DNA of 64,000 bases from a bacterium (GTDB lineage Bacteria; Margulisbacteria; WOR-1; O2-12-FULL-45-9; XYB2-FULL-48-7): NCBI GenBank assembly GCA_043812655.1, contig JBDRLW010000003.1, positions 1 through 64,000 of the forward strand. The letters run 5' to 3'. Positions 13,846 through 61,311 of the stretch are shown piece by piece. The translations under genes were made by a program, and so were the position numbers. The stretch's first letter is position 1. Every line of letters starts with the position of its first letter. Under the pieces are notes generated by a model. The model worked only from the letters and a program-made list of their open reading frames with translations, did no database searches and had not been told where the DNA came from.

Positions 13846-14744
13846 CCGTTAGTATTAAAATAATCGATTAGATTATTTACCGTCTCCATTTCCATGTTCT
13901 GCCGGCACTCGAAAGCATAAGAGCCTACATGTGGAGTCAAAATAACTTGTGGATAATCACAAAGCTTACCCACATAAGGTTCCTGAGCAAAAGTGTCAAG
14001 CCAAGCGCCTATTACTTGCTTACTATTGAGCCCATGGATAAGCGCTTCCTCATCGATTAACGCTCCTCTGGCGGCATTTAAGATAAAGATCCCCTGCTTC
14101 ATTTGCCCAAATTCCTTCGCCCTCAACAAGCACGCTTCGCCGCTACAATGAAGAGTAATAATATCGGCGGCTTTGATTGCGTCCGTTAAATCAACCGATT
14201 TTGTATATTTAGGATCAACCGGAAGCACTTTAGCGCCAAAGGCAGACAAAAGCTCCCCTACTTTCTTGCCAATATTACCGTAACCAATCACTGCCACATT
14301 CTTTTCAGATAACAGCCTACCGATCCGTTTCTCCCATTTTTTTTGATGCAATGCAGCGTCCATCTGATTAACCTGTCTTAAAAGTGATAATAAACATCCG
14401 ATCGTCAATTCAGCTACTGCATTTACCGGGGCAGTTGGTGTATTTCTAACCGTAATTCCAAGCTCCTTAGCGGCTTTTTGATCAACATTAGACATACCGG
14501 CTCCACAGCGGGAAATTATTTTTAAATTAGACTTGGTCATTACCTCACGATCTAATGTTTCCAACCCAGCAATTAACCCGGTTATGCCAGGCAACAGAGC
14601 TAAAAGCTCCTCTTTGGTCAATTTTCGCTTATATGGGTTATCGATTACAGCAAAACCGTGTTCTTCTAATTTACTAATCGGGCTTCGGTCTAAAGAGCCA
14701 AAGCTGGATGGTCCTAATAATATTTTCTTTATTTTTTTCGTCAT
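13842..14744 (-). CDS. D-2-hydroxyacid (phosphoglycerate-like) dehydrogenase
   Basis: AVAE, GYGNIG, NAARG and TPHVGS; no ACT domain. Confidence 0.88.
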   Translation of the reverse strand: MTKKIKKILLGPSSFGSLDRSPISKLEEHGFAVIDNPYKRKLTKEELLALLPGITGLIAGLETLDREVMTKSNLKIISRCGAGMSNVDQKAAKELGITVRNTPTAPVNAVAELTIGCLLSLLRQVNQMDAALHQKKWEKRIGRLLSEKNVAVIGYGNIGKKVGELLSAFGAKVLPVDPKYTKSVDLTDAIKAADIITLHCSGEACLLRAKEFGQMKQGIFILNAARGALIDEEALIHGLNSKQVIGAWLDTFAQEPYVGKLCDYPQVILTPHVGSYAFECRQNMEMETVNNLIDYFNTNG

Positions 14745-14748
14745 TGTT

Positions 14749-15372
14749 CTACTTATTTTCTCCCGTCATTTTATACTGCAGCCAAGTAGCGATTAAATGA
14801 TCAAGGATAAGATGGACATCCTCGACTGGACCGTATTCCCCCTTAAATGTTTTAGCTAGGATCGAGATATCGCATATTTCATTCAATTTTCCTCCATCAA
14901 AACCAACCAAACCGATGGTTTTACCTTGACGAGATTTGACCCACTCTACCGCTTCAACCACATTGGGAGAATTTCCACTGGCTGAAATCGCAATCAGCTT
15001 ATCTCCCGGCCGATAGTGGATCCTTAACTGGTTAACAAATAAATTATTATAACCGTCATCATTAGCAATGGCAGTCATGACCGCATTGCCATCAGTCAAG
15101 GCTAAAACCCTAAAAGCTTTTTTACATTTCGCTTTCTTTAACACGTCTAAACCCAGGTCGTTTGCCATATGAGAAGCCGTTGCCGCAGAGCCTCCATTGC
15201 CGATAACAAAGATCGTATTCTCATGTTCATAAGCAGACTGCAACTCTTTAACCAATGCAGCAATCGCTTTAACATCAAGCTGGCAGGTTAAATCATACAG
15301 GTATTTTAGATACCCTTTTGCGTAATCCTCAACCTTACTTGATTCCTTAAATAGTTTTTCCAAATTATTCAT
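14749..15372 (-). CDS. SIS-domain phosphosugar isomerase (GmhA-like)
   Basis: GNGGSAA, ISASGNSPNV and EDVH. Confidence 0.88.
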   Translation of the reverse strand: MNNLEKLFKESSKVEDYAKGYLKYLYDLTCQLDVKAIAALVKELQSAYEHENTIFVIGNGGSAATASHMANDLGLDVLKKAKCKKAFRVLALTDGNAVMTAIANDDGYNNLFVNQLRIHYRPGDKLIAISASGNSPNVVEAVEWVKSRQGKTIGLVGFDGGKLNEICDISILAKTFKGEYGPVEDVHLILDHLIATWLQYKMTGENK

Positions 15373-58136: not shown

Positions 58137-58202
58137 GGAACCTGAGAATGAAATTCTCGGTTCCATAGAAAACCGGAACCGCGACTTTTAGTCGCAGGTT
58201 CC
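58137..58202. repeat. REP-like inverted doublet (two 28-nt palindromes)
   Basis: 58137-58164 and 58175-58202; homologous doublet at 59975-60040. Confidence 0.85.
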
Positions 58203-58218
58203 GAATAAAGGAATTAAA

Positions 58219-59190
58219 ATGGCAAAAATAAATAATAACAAACCAAAACTCCTCCTCGAAAAACCGCTGGAGGAGCTTTACGCTAAGATCGAAAAATTAA
58301 AAGTCCTTCAGGAATCCGGCAAAATGGACATGACCGAGGAGATCAAAATGCTGGAGAAAAGGATCGAAAATACCCGTAAAGAAATATTCTCCAAGATTAC
58401 GCCGATCCAATGCGTCCAAGTTGCCCGTTACATTATGAGACCGACTACGCTTGATTATATCGATCTGCTATTTAAAGACTTTGTTGAACTCCATGGCGAT
58501 CGTAATTTTTCTGACGATCCAGCTTTAGTTACCGGGATCGCCAATCTCGATGGCCGCTCGGTCATTGTGATGGGCCACCAAAAAGGCCATTCAACCAAAG
58601 AAAATATTGCCCGCAATTTTGGGATGGCAAATCCTGAAGGCTACCGCAAAGCCCTCCGGCTAATGCGCCTGGCCGAGCGTTACAACAAGCCGATCATTTC
58701 TTTTGTTGATACGCCGGGAGCATATTGCGGTTTAGGCGCTGAAGAACGTGGCCAAGCCGAAGCGATCGCTAAAAACCTTCGGGAAATGGCAGAGCTGACT
58801 GTCCCCTTTATTTCCATTATTACTGGTGAGGGTGGCTCTGGAGGGGCGCTAGGAATAGCGATGGGAAATAAAGTTTTGATGCTTGAATATTCAATTTATT
58901 CGGTGATCTCCCCCGAAGGCTGCGCCTCGATCCTTTTCCGTGACGCATCACGCGCTAATGAAGCGGCTAATGCGATGAGGATCACCGCGCCAGACCTGCT
59001 TGAACTCGGGGTAATTGATGAAGTGATCAAAGAACCGATCGGCGGCGCGCACAACGATCCGGCCTTTATGGCCAAAAATATCAAGGCCGCCATTTTAAAA
59101 CATCTAGAACCGCTTCTCTCCCTCTCTCACCGCGAGCTAATAGCCGACCGGTACAACAAATACCGGAAGATGGGAATTTTTAACGGATAA
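58219..59190 (+). CDS. accA: Acetyl-CoA carboxylase carboxyltransferase alpha subunit
   Basis: ELHGDR, PEGYRKA, DTPGAY, GEGGSGGA and SVISPEG. Confidence 0.97.
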   Translation: MAKINNNKPKLLLEKPLEELYAKIEKLKVLQESGKMDMTEEIKMLEKRIENTRKEIFSKITPIQCVQVARYIMRPTTLDYIDLLFKDFVELHGDRNFSDDPALVTGIANLDGRSVIVMGHQKGHSTKENIARNFGMANPEGYRKALRLMRLAERYNKPIISFVDTPGAYCGLGAEERGQAEAIAKNLREMAELTVPFISIITGEGGSGGALGIAMGNKVLMLEYSIYSVISPEGCASILFRDASRANEAANAMRITAPDLLELGVIDEVIKEPIGGAHNDPAFMAKNIKAAILKHLEPLLSLSHRELIADRYNKYRKMGIFNG

Positions 59191-59202: not shown

Positions 59203-59372
59203 TGCCGCGGAGAGGAATTGAACCTCCATGGGTTTAACCCCGCTAGCTCCTGAAGTCCCGCTTCATTAATATTTTATCATAATGACTTGCGGGATCCCGA
59301 CGATTACATTATTATCATATCTTAATGACCGTCGGGACTAGTGCGCCCGCCTTCGGCGGGTAAATCTGCCAG
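59203..59372 (-). pseudogene. Interrupted partial copy of tRNA-Leu(CAG)
   Basis: Matches the intact gene from D-loop to 3' end, except 2 acceptor bases, once inserts 59256-59337 and 59346-59364 are removed. Confidence 0.85.
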
Positions 59373-59394
59373 ATAATAAACTTGCTTCTTCAAA

Positions 59395-59478
59395 TGCCCA
59401 GGAGAGGAATTGAACCTCCATGGGTTTAACCCCGCTAGCTCCTGAAGCTAGTGCGTCTGCCAGTTCCGCCACCTGGGC
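59395..59478 (-). tRNA. tRNA-Leu(CAG)
   Basis: GCCCAGG acceptor, CTAGC-TTCAGGA-GCTAG anticodon arm, long variable arm, GTTCAAT; CCA not encoded. Confidence 0.96.
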
Positions 59479-59549
59479 ATTTGAAGGTGGAAATATTCTC
59501 TCATAAATTGACTGCTGATTCAAGATATTTTTCTGAAAAAAAAGGAGAT

Positions 59550-59604
59550 AGTTCCGCTTTACCCGCCACAGGTGGGTTTACCCGCCGCAGGCGGGCATAG
59601 CGGC
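59550..59604 (-). pseudogene. tRNA-Leu 5' fragment interrupted by two tandem 19-nt hairpins
   Basis: GCCGCTATG [38 nt, 59558-59595] GCGGAACT. Confidence 0.65.
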
Positions 59605-59610
59605 ATAAAA

Positions 59611-59695
59611 TGCCGCTGGCCGGAGTTGAACCGGCACGGGGGTTAACCCCACTTGATTTTGAGTCAAGCGCGTCTGCCAATTCCACCACAGCGGC
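59611..59695 (-). tRNA. tRNA-Leu(CAA)
   Basis: GCCGCTG acceptor, CTTGA-CTCAAAA-TCAAG anticodon arm, variable arm, GTTCAAC; CCA not encoded. Confidence 0.96.
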
Positions 59696-59760
59696 ATTTC
59701 GACTCCGTCTCGACTCACTGCGTTCGCTCGACGTCGCTCAATGCCGAGAGAAGCCGAGAC

Positions 59761-59816
59761 ATTCCACTTTACCCGCCTGCCTACCGGCAGGCAAGCCGTA
59801 GGCGGGCACAGCGGCA
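59761..59816 (-). pseudogene. tRNA-Leu(CAA) 5' fragment interrupted by a nested hairpin element
   Basis: Removing 59768-59806 leaves 17/17 identity to 59680-59696. Confidence 0.8.
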
Positions 59817-59830
59817 CGACAACTATGGTG

Positions 59831-59859
59831 AGTATAGCAAAATAATTAAAGCTTGACAA
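59831..59859 (-). promoter_or_regulatory. Promoter of the tRNA-Leu cluster
   Basis: TTGTCA, 17-bp spacer, TATACT with extended TG. Confidence 0.65.
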
Positions 59860-59882
59860 TAAACTATCTTATAATGTATTAT
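59853..59882 (+). promoter_or_regulatory. Divergent promoter for rho, overlapping the tRNA -35
   Basis: TTGACA, 18-bp spacer, TATTAT. Confidence 0.5.
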
Positions 59883-59974
59883 AAAGATGTCCCAATAAAC
59901 GACCACATTTTACAATTTTTTCTTAATGACAACAAAATTAACAATTTCTCAATCAAACAAAAACAAGTTTATCT

Positions 59975-60040
59975 AACCTGCGACTAAAAGTCGCGGTTTC
60001 GTTTATCCAAATGGAACCGAGGCTTTCAGCCTCAGGTTCC
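59975..60040. repeat. REP-like inverted doublet, reverse-oriented copy of 58137-58202
   Basis: AACCTGCGACTAAAAGTCGCGGTT plus GGAACCGAGGCTTTCAGCCTCAGGTTCC. Confidence 0.85.
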
Positions 60041-60066: not shown

Positions 60067-61311
60067 ATGGATATTGTAGAGTTAGAAGGTAAGACCCTGC
60101 CCCAATTATACGAGGTCGCCAAAGGTTTGAACATTGCCAACCTGCGGCAATTAAAAAAGCACGACCTGGTTTTTAAGATCCTCGAAGCCCAGACCGAAAA
60201 GAACGGCCACATTTTCACCAAAGGGATCCTAGAGATCCTGCCCGAAAATTATGGTTTCTTGCGGACCGGCGGCTATCTCCCCAGCCGGGAAGACGTTTAT
60301 GTTTCGCAAACCCAGATCCGCCGCTTTGATATGCAAAACGGTGATTTTGTCACCGGCCAGGTCCGGCCGCCTAAAGAGGGCGAAAAATATTATAGTTTGC
60401 TGAAGATCGAAGCGATCAACGGCGAAAATCCGGAAGGGGCGAGACAGCGCATACCATTTGACAGCTTAACACCAATTTTCCCCAACCGCCGCTTTGGTTT
60501 GGAATTTCCCGGTTGCCCCATGGCTTGCCGGTTGATTGACATGGTCGCGCCGATCGGCGCCGGCCAAAGAGCAATGATCGTCTCGCCGCCAAAGGCCGGT
60601 AAAACCACGGTCTTGAAAAATATCGCTAACTCGATCACTGAAAATTTCCCTGAAACCCTGATCAAAGTCTTACTGGTTGATGAACGGCCGGAAGAAGTGA
60701 CCGATATGCAAAGGTCAGTTAAAGGCGAAGTCGTTGCTTCAACTTTTGATGAGCCGCCGGAGGACCACATTAGGATCGCCGAATTATTACTGGAAGCTTG
60801 CAAACGCTTAGTTGAAGCAGGCAAAGATGTCGTAATCCTCCTTGATTCGATCACCCGCTTAGCTCGGGCTTACAATTTAGTTACCCCACCCTCCGGCCGG
60901 ACGCTGTCCGGCGGTCTTGACCCGACTTGTCTCCACCGGCCAAAGCGCTTCTTCGGCGGCGCGCGGAATATTGAAGAAGGCGGCAGTTTAACGATCATCG
61001 CTACTGCTCTAGTTGAAACCGGCTCCAGGATGGACGATATTATTTATGAAGAGTTCAAAGGAACAGGTAATATGGAACTCCACCTCAACCGTAAGCTGGC
61101 TGACCGGAGAATTTTCCCAGCGATCGACGTGCGGCTCTCCGGCACCAGGCGCGAAGAGCTCCTAATGGACGATAAGGAACTGAAAAAGATGTGGCTCTTG
61201 CGCAAAGTGATGGACAATTACGAGGCGGTTGAAGCGACCGAACAATTAATTGAACGGCTCAAAACCTTTAAGACTAATAAGCAGTTCTTTGATTCGGCTG
61301 ATGTAAAGTAA
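60067..61311 (+). CDS. rho: Transcription termination factor Rho
   Basis: [30 protein letters not shown] and EEFKGTGN. Confidence 0.98.

Follow-up and report, generated by a model that had tools for sequence, protein, structure and literature searches.

A tRNA-Leu locus with hairpin-interrupted gene fragments as a probable nuclease-less relic of a GIY-YIG cassette that nests in tRNA genes

Between accA (58219-59190, plus strand) and rho (60067-61311, plus strand), in a 64,000-nucleotide (nt) window of DNA (contig C3:1-64000 of genome G000, a 1.6-Mb draft in 46 contigs with 45% G+C), two intact tRNA-Leu genes are interleaved with fragments of tRNA genes that are themselves interrupted by short hairpins. 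Our analysis indicates that this locus (59859-59203, minus strand) is probably the decayed relic, now lacking its nuclease, of a selfish cassette of a GIY-YIG nuclease gene and palindromes that nests in tRNA genes. The anatomy of the locus, its recurrence elsewhere, and the association of nuclease, tRNA gene, and hairpin are established by direct observation. The genome is bacterial, with transfer-messenger RNA (tmRNA), rho, and accA present. In minus-strand order, the locus consists of a promoter-like site (P1), stub 1, a spacer, Leu(CAA), stub 2, a gap with a second promoter-like site (P2), Leu(CAG), a spacer, and a 3' relic. The initial annotation had listed the first promoter, the fragments, and the intact genes in the same order, and we found each of them on the minus strand; its end coordinate, 59816, lies one base beyond stub 1, which occupies 59815-59761. 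The features are as follows, with intact tRNA genes called by ARAGORN and Rfam and with A to D denoting the hairpin repeat families defined further below.

59831..59859, minus strand: promoter-like site P1 (TTGTCA-17-TATACT, with TG before the -10), found by promoter scan in front of stub 1
59807..59815, minus strand: first piece of stub 1, GCCGCTGTG, matching Leu(CAA) positions 1-9 by sequence comparison
59768..59806, minus strand: 39-nt composite hairpin, a unit A with a 20-nt B-type palindrome, CTTGCCTGCCGGTAGGCAGG, in its loop
59761..59767, minus strand: second piece of stub 1, GTGGAAT, matching Leu(CAA) positions 10-16
59697..59760, minus strand: 64-nt spacer with a D-family repeat, core GAGCGAACGCAGTGAGTCGA at 59710-59729
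59611..59695, minus strand: intact tRNA-Leu(CAA), ARAGORN and Rfam, 54.7 bits
59596..59604, minus strand: first piece of stub 2, GCCGCTATG, tRNA positions 1-9
59558..59595, minus strand: two tandem 19-nt A units, CCCGCCTGCGGCGGGTAAA and CCCACCTGTGGCGGGTAAA, splitting stub 2
59550..59557, minus strand: second piece of stub 2, GCGGAACT, matching Leu(CAG) positions 10-17
59549-59479, minus strand: 71-nt gap from stub 2 to Leu(CAG)
59495..59523, minus strand: promoter-like site P2 (TTGAAT-17-GAGAAT), proposed from conservation to serve the nested Leu(CAG)
59395..59478, minus strand: intact tRNA-Leu(CAG), between stub 2 and the 3' relic, ARAGORN and Rfam, 52.5 bits
59365..59372, minus strand: first piece of the 3' relic, CTGGCAGA, from the D-loop, its CT overlapping the end of stub 2
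59346..59364, minus strand: inverted A unit, TTTACCCGCCGAAGGCGGG, in the 3' relic
59338..59345, minus strand: second piece of the 3' relic, CGCACTAG, D-stem 3' strand and anticodon-stem 5' strand
59256..59337, minus strand: two C-family hairpins with AT-rich loops, of 43 nt (59295-59337) and 39 nt (59256-59294)
59203..59255, minus strand: last piece of the 3' relic, 53 nt from the anticodon loop to the 3' end, with acceptor strand CCGCGGC

When the five pieces around Leu(CAG) are joined by script, they form an 84-nt sequence that ARAGORN calls as tRNA-Leu(cag), with an acceptor stem that pairs at 5/7 positions (GCCGC/GCGGC); the earlier proposal that the pieces rebuild one full tRNA around the intact gene is thereby borne out, and the CT overlap of stub 2 and the 3' relic is real. 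The joined relic is identical to intact Leu(CAG) at 78 of 84 positions, and all six differences fall in the acceptor stem. This match is not due to chance: over its 47-nt core, the relic shares 100% identity with intact Leu(CAG), at a BLAST E value of 7.5e-21 in a search of the genome. The 3' relic follows the intact Leu(CAG) after a spacer of 22 nt, and 13 nt separate its end from the stop of accA at 59190. At the other end of the locus, stub 1 starts 16 nt past the -10 hexamer of P1, in agreement with its earlier placement just after the predicted transcription start site. Because the GTCGT leader in front of it is the same as that at the intact Leu(CAA) of G006, stub 1 occupies the original gene start, behind the original promoter. 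P2 scores under the threshold of the promoter scan and was therefore assigned from conservation, its block being kept upstream of Leu(CAG) in G005, G006, G009, and G023, that is, with and without an intervening open reading frame (ORF). Each of the two intact Leu genes has its own promoter-like site.

The comparison of the accA-rho interval across relatives, which had been suggested as a check, links this layout to a nuclease gene. Most relatives have a plain accA-Leu-Leu-rho arrangement, and in 9 of the 12 loci with both Leu genes these lie 12-23 nt apart. In G023, a member of another family of the same order, the locus lies next to the end of accA and has the same nested layout as in G000. 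Specifically, it runs from Leu(CAA) through a stub (GCCCAGGTG, an A unit, and GCGGAACT), a GIY-YIG ORF of 89 amino acids (aa), and intact Leu(CAG) to TGGCAGA, an inverted A unit, and the 3' remainder. The inverted A unit is identical at 19/19 positions in G000 and G023 and occupies the same tRNA position, in tRNA bodies that differ at many positions. In G005, from the family of G000, a stub with an A unit at position 9/10 and a B unit after GGCAGA is followed by the ORF and then by Leu(CAG). The presence of the ORF at Leu(CAG) is thus polymorphic, with an ORF in G023 and G005 and none in G000. When we searched the gap before Leu(CAG) for the end of a nuclease ORF, the conserved block found there was the tRNA promoter, which is common to relatives without the ORF.

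Three further observations concern this gap and its surroundings. In the G005 nuclease ORF (locus L044, around 1770-1800), the codons for the conserved KSGIGRE motif read GCGGAATTGGCAGA, which is nearly a tRNA-Leu D-arm sequence, and GCGGAACT of stub 2 is as far from the -35 box in G000 as this motif is in G005 and G023; tentatively, the ORF may have been deleted between those short homologies. In addition, the orientation of the tRNA pair was compared between window positions 59203-59859 and loci L007, L010, L012, L006, L011, L002, and L008. The pair is inverted relative to accA and rho in G000, G007, and G023; G001 has the two genes in swapped order, and G012 has them in divergent orientation. 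These sequences mark the accA-rho interval as a hot spot of rearrangement in this bacterial order.

Small nucleases of this type are present elsewhere in G000. A search with PF01541 gave seven hits in the genome, six in frames of 76-96 aa and the seventh in a frame of 418 aa. All six small frames adjoin tRNA genes, namely Gln (twice), Arg, Tyr, Pro, and Ser. The PF01541 matches of the G023 and G000 ORFs have E values from 2e-12 to 4e-19, and the catalytic residues Y16, R26, H30, and E62 are invariant in 7/7 aligned proteins. The catalytic domain spans nearly all of the 76-96 aa ORFs, and we found no separate DNA-binding domain in them. No NCBIfam family scored above its cut-off for these nucleases. 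Their nearest solved relatives are UPF0213 proteins (1zg2 and 1ywl; E 3e-17) and SLX1, a similarity that hints at a subfamily other than cd10448.

Relics comparable to those in the window are found at further tRNA genes of G000, where a scan had been suggested, and also in relatives. We ran a BLAST census with all 45 tRNA genes of G000, in which pieces shorter than about 16 nt, stubs 1 and 2 among them, escape detection. It yielded 18 tRNA fragments that are not part of an intact gene; 14 are no more than 300 nt from a tRNA gene, and all share 96-100% identity with some tRNA. By eye, hairpins are present in every relic. Stubs or remainders plugged by hairpins occur at Ser(TGA), Tyr, Arg(CCG), Pro(GGG), Pro(CGG), Val(GAC), one Met, Glu(TTC), and Leu(GAG), in addition to the two genes in the window. 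Fragments of this kind thus lie at no fewer than 10 tRNA loci, and roughly ten of the 45 tRNA genes are scarred. A broken copy is always accompanied by an intact one, and intact genes exist for all five Leu anticodons. Relic loci without an ORF are found at Leu (three), Val, Met, and Pro(CGG).

Some of these loci deserve a closer description. At C3:65831-66160, outside the window, tRNA-Leu(GAG) stands between a 5' stub and a 3' remainder. Its stub consists of GCCGCGGTGG, a 39-nt A-with-B hairpin identical to that of stub 1, and TGGAACTGGC; its remainder has a T-loop split by two C hairpins; and the acceptor strand of the stub, GCCGCGG, pairs perfectly with CCGCGGC of the window relic. At tRNA-Arg(CCG) (C9:50750-51650), the 3' part plus 27 nt of downstream flank is tandemly duplicated around C hairpins, with a third copy of 17 nt after it, which suggests repeated rounds of one event. 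Finally, ARAGORN calls an odd tRNA-Ser(gct) at C1:8934-9017, with the anticodon at position 30 and, it seems, no regular D arm. Directly downstream of it follow the Ser(TGA) stub and nuclease cassette, and a normal Ser(gct) is found at C1:15270-15358.

The hairpins fall into repeat families, all of which occur together at this locus. Unit A is a 19-nt sequence, CCCGCC-nnn-GGCGGG-TAAA, with a 3-nt loop; unit B is a 20-nt palindrome, CCTGCCTGCCGGCAGGCAGG; unit C is composed of TCCCGAyG, an AT-rich stretch of ~26 nt, and CrTCGGGA, about 40 nt in total; and unit D is a repeat with core GAGCGAACGAAGTGAGTCGA. Unit A (-7.3 kcal/mol, z -3.7) and the C units (z -3.6 and -3.2) fold clearly more stably than shuffled sequences; the D repeat at the locus folds no better than its shuffles. 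The stub 1 39-mer recurs identically at C3:65844-65882, in the Leu stub described above, 6 kb away. Positions within 400 nt of an intact tRNA gene make up 1.66% of the genome. Within this distance are 6/10 A units by a loose pattern (P 4e-9), 5/7 A units by a strict pattern, and 9/12 C units by a strict pattern (P 2e-14). A units were found in 25 of 41 related genomes, where a reversed control pattern found almost none, and the first C hairpin has at least 30 matches in 14 relatives among the matches listed. D-family relatives adjoin GIY-YIG genes on C44 of G000 and in G027. Units also appear to nest in loops: by eye, B lies inside A here, A lies inside B in G024 and G030, and 7/7 B copies away from tRNA genes lie in the loops of other repeats. 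Neither the longest perfect flank stem nor the number of cross-pairs in folded flanks distinguishes B sites well from random positions (27% of controls have at least 8 cross-pairs). Because both statistics separate poorly, the nesting of B in loops is read from inspection of 9 sites.

Beyond G000, the link between nuclease, tRNA gene, and hairpin is widespread. Small GIY-YIG nucleases are present in 39 of 41 related genomes. Among 37 ORFs examined in relatives, 28 have a tRNA gene within 150 nt, in every case (28/28) on the same strand; A units lie near nine ORFs, always (9/9) beside genes for class II tRNAs (Leu, Ser, Tyr). The nuclease tree has two deep clades (100/100), in a bootstrap that had not settled and with several forks unsettled. 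Members of clade one lie upstream of various tRNA genes, in sub-clades by tRNA type that cut across host families, and those of clade two lie downstream of tRNA-Gln. The tRNA labels require 10 changes on this tree, compared with a mean of 19.3 after shuffling (0/200 shuffles match). Judged from the protein sequences, the nuclease tree follows tRNA type and not host.

We also collected wider homologues with a single G023 protein as query, assigning phyla by record title. This gave 80 homologous loci (Patescibacteria, Bacteroidota, Gammaproteobacteria, Planctomycetes, and others), 66 of which have a same-strand tRNA gene within 300 nt. At 48 loci, a same-strand tRNA gene follows within 150 nt, and at 34 of these the sequence upstream of the ORF repeats tRNA nt 1-9 exactly (control, 0). 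A hairpin of at least 6 bp, most often the B palindrome, is held by 31 of the 34 stubs. The exact junction GGCAGA/TTTACCCGCCnnnGGCGGG/CGC, with an inverted A unit, was found in four metagenome loci (three distinct), all of which (4/4) show a Leu stub, then a GIY-YIG ORF, and then an intact tRNA-Leu. At metagenome locus L171, a second stub is followed by only the last bases of an ORF; therefore, this ORF was deleted in place, leaving an ORF-less state. The sequence CCGCGGC of the relic is the acceptor strand of an alternative Leu(CAG) allele, which is intact in 6/18 genomes and mixed within families and within one genus, a pattern that fits tRNA gene replacement.

We propose the following mechanism for these patterns. 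The full cassette would combine a minimal (76-96 aa) GIY-YIG gene, one or more palindromic units of types A, B, and C, and a working tRNA gene, with the palindromic units located in or beside loop-coding parts of tRNA genes. Invasion at or near such a part would split the resident tRNA gene, a 5' stub would remain at the old promoter, a 3' remainder would sometimes be left, and the complete tRNA gene in between, with its own promoter, would stay functional. Both Leu genes of the accA-rho interval would have been hit in this way, Leu(CAG) through its D-loop, and the nuclease gene would later have been deleted here. By analogy with SegB of phage T4, the nuclease may make the break, and the palindromes may serve it in cis in the way that SRM repeats serve Ssn nucleases. 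Gene conversion would keep the interiors of relics identical to the working gene, and the outermost acceptor ends would escape it. The initial annotation had instead suggested repeated attack by miniature elements with rescue by duplication. The part of this idea that stands is that hairpin families recur at tRNA loci where an intact copy is always kept; the likely driver, a GIY-YIG gene, was missed. Because the GIY-YIG gene fills the gap in G023 and G005 and adjoins a tRNA gene in 6/6 cases in G000, we favor a cassette that brings or regenerates the working tRNA gene over an attack followed by a lucky duplication.

Several results weigh against this interpretation. The PF01541 search found no nuclease gene in the window or on this contig, and a nuclease of the Leu clade was not found anywhere in G000. 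The spacers of G000 and G023 align only at the tRNA pieces, hairpins, and promoter, so that common descent, or loss of the ORF, at this locus is something we infer and do not observe. Nested junctions overlap by 2 nt at this locus, by 1 nt in G023, and by 0 nt in the Leu(CAA) nest of G005, and because of this variation, a fixed 2-nt staggered cut is only weakly suggested. In addition, the first 9 nt of stub 2 are nearer to Leu(CAA) than to Leu(CAG), and the acceptor formed by stub 2 and the 3' relic is paired at only 5/7 positions; the two halves may therefore come from different genes. B and D units lie mostly away from tRNA genes (2/9 and 3/9 within 400 nt, respectively). The proposal does not account for the escape of an intact tRNA copy from a tRNA-directed nuclease. 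Finally, assembly support is partial, with the full locus spanned by no public contig.

This last point bears on whether the locus is an artefact of metagenome assembly, in which repeats of tRNA pieces and hairpins were mis-joined. We checked the assembly, as had been recommended, against Logan contigs of low depth (about 3) from four runs. The check succeeded in part: one contig of the likely source run, X1, matches 59258-59401 with 0 differences, and one contig of the unrelated groundwater study X6 matches 59338-59439 with 3 differences, crossing the junction of relic, hairpin, spacer, and intact tRNA gene. In all four runs, 59515-59596 and 59843-59924 are uncovered, and the same sample as the likely source run contains a contig of a relative with a plain CAA-15 nt-CAG pair. 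A draft of 46 contigs, at this depth and with two uncovered parts, leaves some room for a mis-join; however, independent assemblies of G023, G005, and four metagenome contigs show this architecture too, which makes an artefact very improbable. We consider it just as improbable that the fragments are functional, either as a split tRNA that is spliced or joined in trans or as decoys or leaders (stable 5' structures, nuclease sinks). The joined pieces do give a full tRNA-Leu(CAG), the interior parts of the relic match the working gene at 100% identity despite three interruptions, hairpin positions are conserved between families, and stub 1 would lie on the transcript of intact Leu(CAA) if P1 is used. 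However, searches for tRNA_int_endo (PF01974) and RtcB (PF01139) gave 0 hits in this 93%-complete genome with positive controls, which, together with the intact genes for all five Leu anticodons, leaves the previously suggested joined product unsupported. The relic also has two mismatches in its acceptor stem, gene conversion explains the interior identity equally well, and nothing was found in favor of the decoy targets that had been raised. Because 9/12 relatives' loci with both Leu genes have a plain pair, the fragments are dispensable.

Another explanation is that the palindromes act alone. Hairpins resembling repetitive extragenic palindromic (REP) elements, moved by another enzyme or by template switching, would enter tRNA loops and provoke duplications, with GIY-YIG genes as passengers that were never at this locus. 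This would account for the many ORF-less relic loci in G000, the tandem duplications around hairpins at Arg(CCG) and Pro(CGG), and the nesting of units, by eye, in each other's loops and in those of other hairpins (7/7 B copies away from tRNA genes). It also gains from the three Y1_Tnp genes of G000 and from an A-like unit that fills the loop of a REP beside one of them, a loop that is empty in G010 and G013. However, the Y1 genes have their own, different flanking repeats, the combination of stub, hairpin, and nuclease is found across phyla (34/48; control, 0), nuclease clades track tRNA type, and an ORF is present at 4/4 metagenome loci with the exact junction. We therefore regard action of the palindromes alone as unlikely. 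Less probable than any other explanation are scars at the attachment (att) sites of islands that carried an integrase and have since departed. Integration classically targets tRNA genes and leaves partial tRNA copies there (PMC9897764), and G000 has an integrase beside tRNA-Ser(gct) on C1. Against this, the integrase search (PF00589) gave three hits in G000, on C1 and C30, and none on C3, consistent with the earlier statement that no integrase is present. Moreover, 5' stubs and a nested whole gene lie within 130-230 nt, and stub, whole gene, and remainder all lie within 620 nt, rather than a 3'-end direct repeat bracketing kilobases, and reciprocal recombination would yield two whole hybrid tRNAs rather than a stub, a whole gene, and a remainder.

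A more speculative variant of the cassette proposal gives the palindromes a larger role. The 19-20-nt palindromes would be discrete mobile units that insert into the single-stranded loops of DNA hairpins and are moved or seeded by minimal SLX1/UPF0213-like GIY-YIG nucleases residing on tRNA genes, with nicks at the units driving a gene conversion that holds relic pieces identical to the working tRNA and exchanges tRNA alleles among lineages. We regard this as possible but rather doubtful. The same reservation applies to its targets, which would be loop-coding parts of tRNA genes, REP loops, and the loops of other such units. If true, loop insertion would represent structure-targeted mobile DNA distinct from homing endonucleases, IS200/IS605 elements, and miniature inverted-repeat transposable elements (MITEs).

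The REP systems and the integrase of G000 can be described in their own right. The three Y1_Tnp genes are flanked by their own repeats (GGAACC...GGTTCC or GTAGGGCAAGGG...). None of the unit families flanks a Y1 gene as REP elements flank the gene of a REP-associated tyrosine transposase (RAYT), and the lone A-like unit is an insert in a REP loop. The third Y1 gene (C10:373-858 with flanks; loci L176 and L177) lies between GTAGGGCAAGGG-type repeats, the downstream one of which has a 19-nt A-like unit, CCCTCCTTCGGCGGGCAAG, in its loop in G000 and an empty loop in G010 and G013. This gives a clean pair of filled and empty sites, with CAAG on both sides. We considered a RAYT as the mover of unit A and rejected it: genomes with C10-like Y1 genes have A units in 10/12 cases, compared with 15/29 of the others, but the genomes are interrelated and the Y1 repeats differ. 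The GGAACC...GGTTCC family numbers at least 34 copies and resembles a classical REP/RAYT system; some copies flank small Y1 genes at C3:87979-88329 and C5:25605-25946. Pairs of these hairpins lie at ~59975-60040, upstream of rho, where a terminator scan detected them, and at ~58140-58205, between accD and accA, with a weak Rfam 'tp2' match. On C1, a tyrosine integrase frame (396 aa) at 14592-15110 lies ~160 nt from tRNA-Ser(gct) and may mark a conventional integrative element unrelated to the cassettes.

A full-text search of the literature, which covered the main text of the Ssn paper discussed below, turned up no report of GIY-YIG genes and hairpins that form a cassette within bacterial tRNA genes; the locus is probably an ordinary decayed member of an apparently widespread and unpublished class. 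Its value lies in showing what is left once the nuclease gene has been lost, with all hairpin families together. If our interpretation is correct, a widespread selfish element remodels essential tRNA loci and replaces tRNA alleles across lineages, leaving genomes littered with pseudo-tRNA pieces that mislead annotation. Furthermore, minimal nucleases with 19-20-nt palindromes could yield structure- or sequence-specific tools for cutting DNA, like the Ssn family.

The proposed cassette shares features with several known systems. REP elements with RAYT (Y1/HUH) transposases, which are IS200/IS605-like, are short palindromes recognized as hairpins in single-stranded DNA. REP/RAYT systems are mentioned in the discussion of the Ssn paper (PMC11893778). 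The units described here are likewise short palindromes, with a 4-nt tail and many copies, in a genome that has its own REP systems; what sets units A and C apart from REP elements is their concentration at tRNA genes and their association with GIY-YIG genes, and the Y1 genes are flanked by other repeats. Split and multi-intron tRNA genes of archaea consist of pieces with short inserts at several positions. The present locus also consists of tRNA pieces with short inserts, but it is bacterial, an intact gene with the same anticodon is present, and neither a splicing endonuclease nor RtcB was found. In fungal mitochondria, mobile endonuclease ORFs insert in an essential gene, supply the displaced part, and leave a stub. 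The likeness to our locus lies in the endonuclease gene within an essential gene, the replacement copy, and the stub; the difference is that those ORFs reside in protein genes of an organelle, where we know of no palindromic units described.

Among GIY-YIG nucleases, SegB of phage T4 has a separate DNA-binding part. It is a free-standing homing endonuclease encoded in a tRNA gene cluster, with a site that includes a conserved tRNA stem-loop motif, and it leaves 2-nt 3' overhangs and spreads with neighboring tRNA genes (PMC2330249). The cassette resembles it in having a GIY-YIG gene among tRNA genes and in the 2-nt CT overlap observed here, compared with the 2-nt 3' overhangs of SegB (PMC2330249). 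Unlike this phage protein, the predicted nuclease of the cassette is a chromosomally encoded catalytic domain of 76-96 aa only, and its gene lies inside a split tRNA gene together with palindromes. Partial tRNA genes from integrating elements, described as 3'-end direct repeats that bracket islands of 9-23 kb with integrases, also leave a tRNA fragment beside an intact copy, and the passages of that report on the origin of such fragments name only integrating elements and CRISPR spacers as sources (PMC9897764). In contrast, the present locus has 5' stubs, nested whole genes, and hairpin inserts, and no integrase on its contig. A further parallel is the Ssn family (SsnA, NTS/SRM), defined by the CDD family cd10448, in which genes for small single-domain GIY-YIG proteins are flanked by cognate hairpin repeats of 20-50 nt and the members tested cleave single-stranded DNA next to the hairpin (Chenal et al. 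2025, PMC11893778). The term tRNA has 0 occurrences in the main text of that paper, supplementary files apart (PMC11893778). The nucleases considered here are likewise single-domain GIY-YIG proteins of about 100 aa, with genes flanked by hairpin repeats (31/34 stubs; A units beside 9 ORFs); they differ in that their repeats lie inside tRNA fragments and that their nearest solved relatives are UPF0213 and SLX1.

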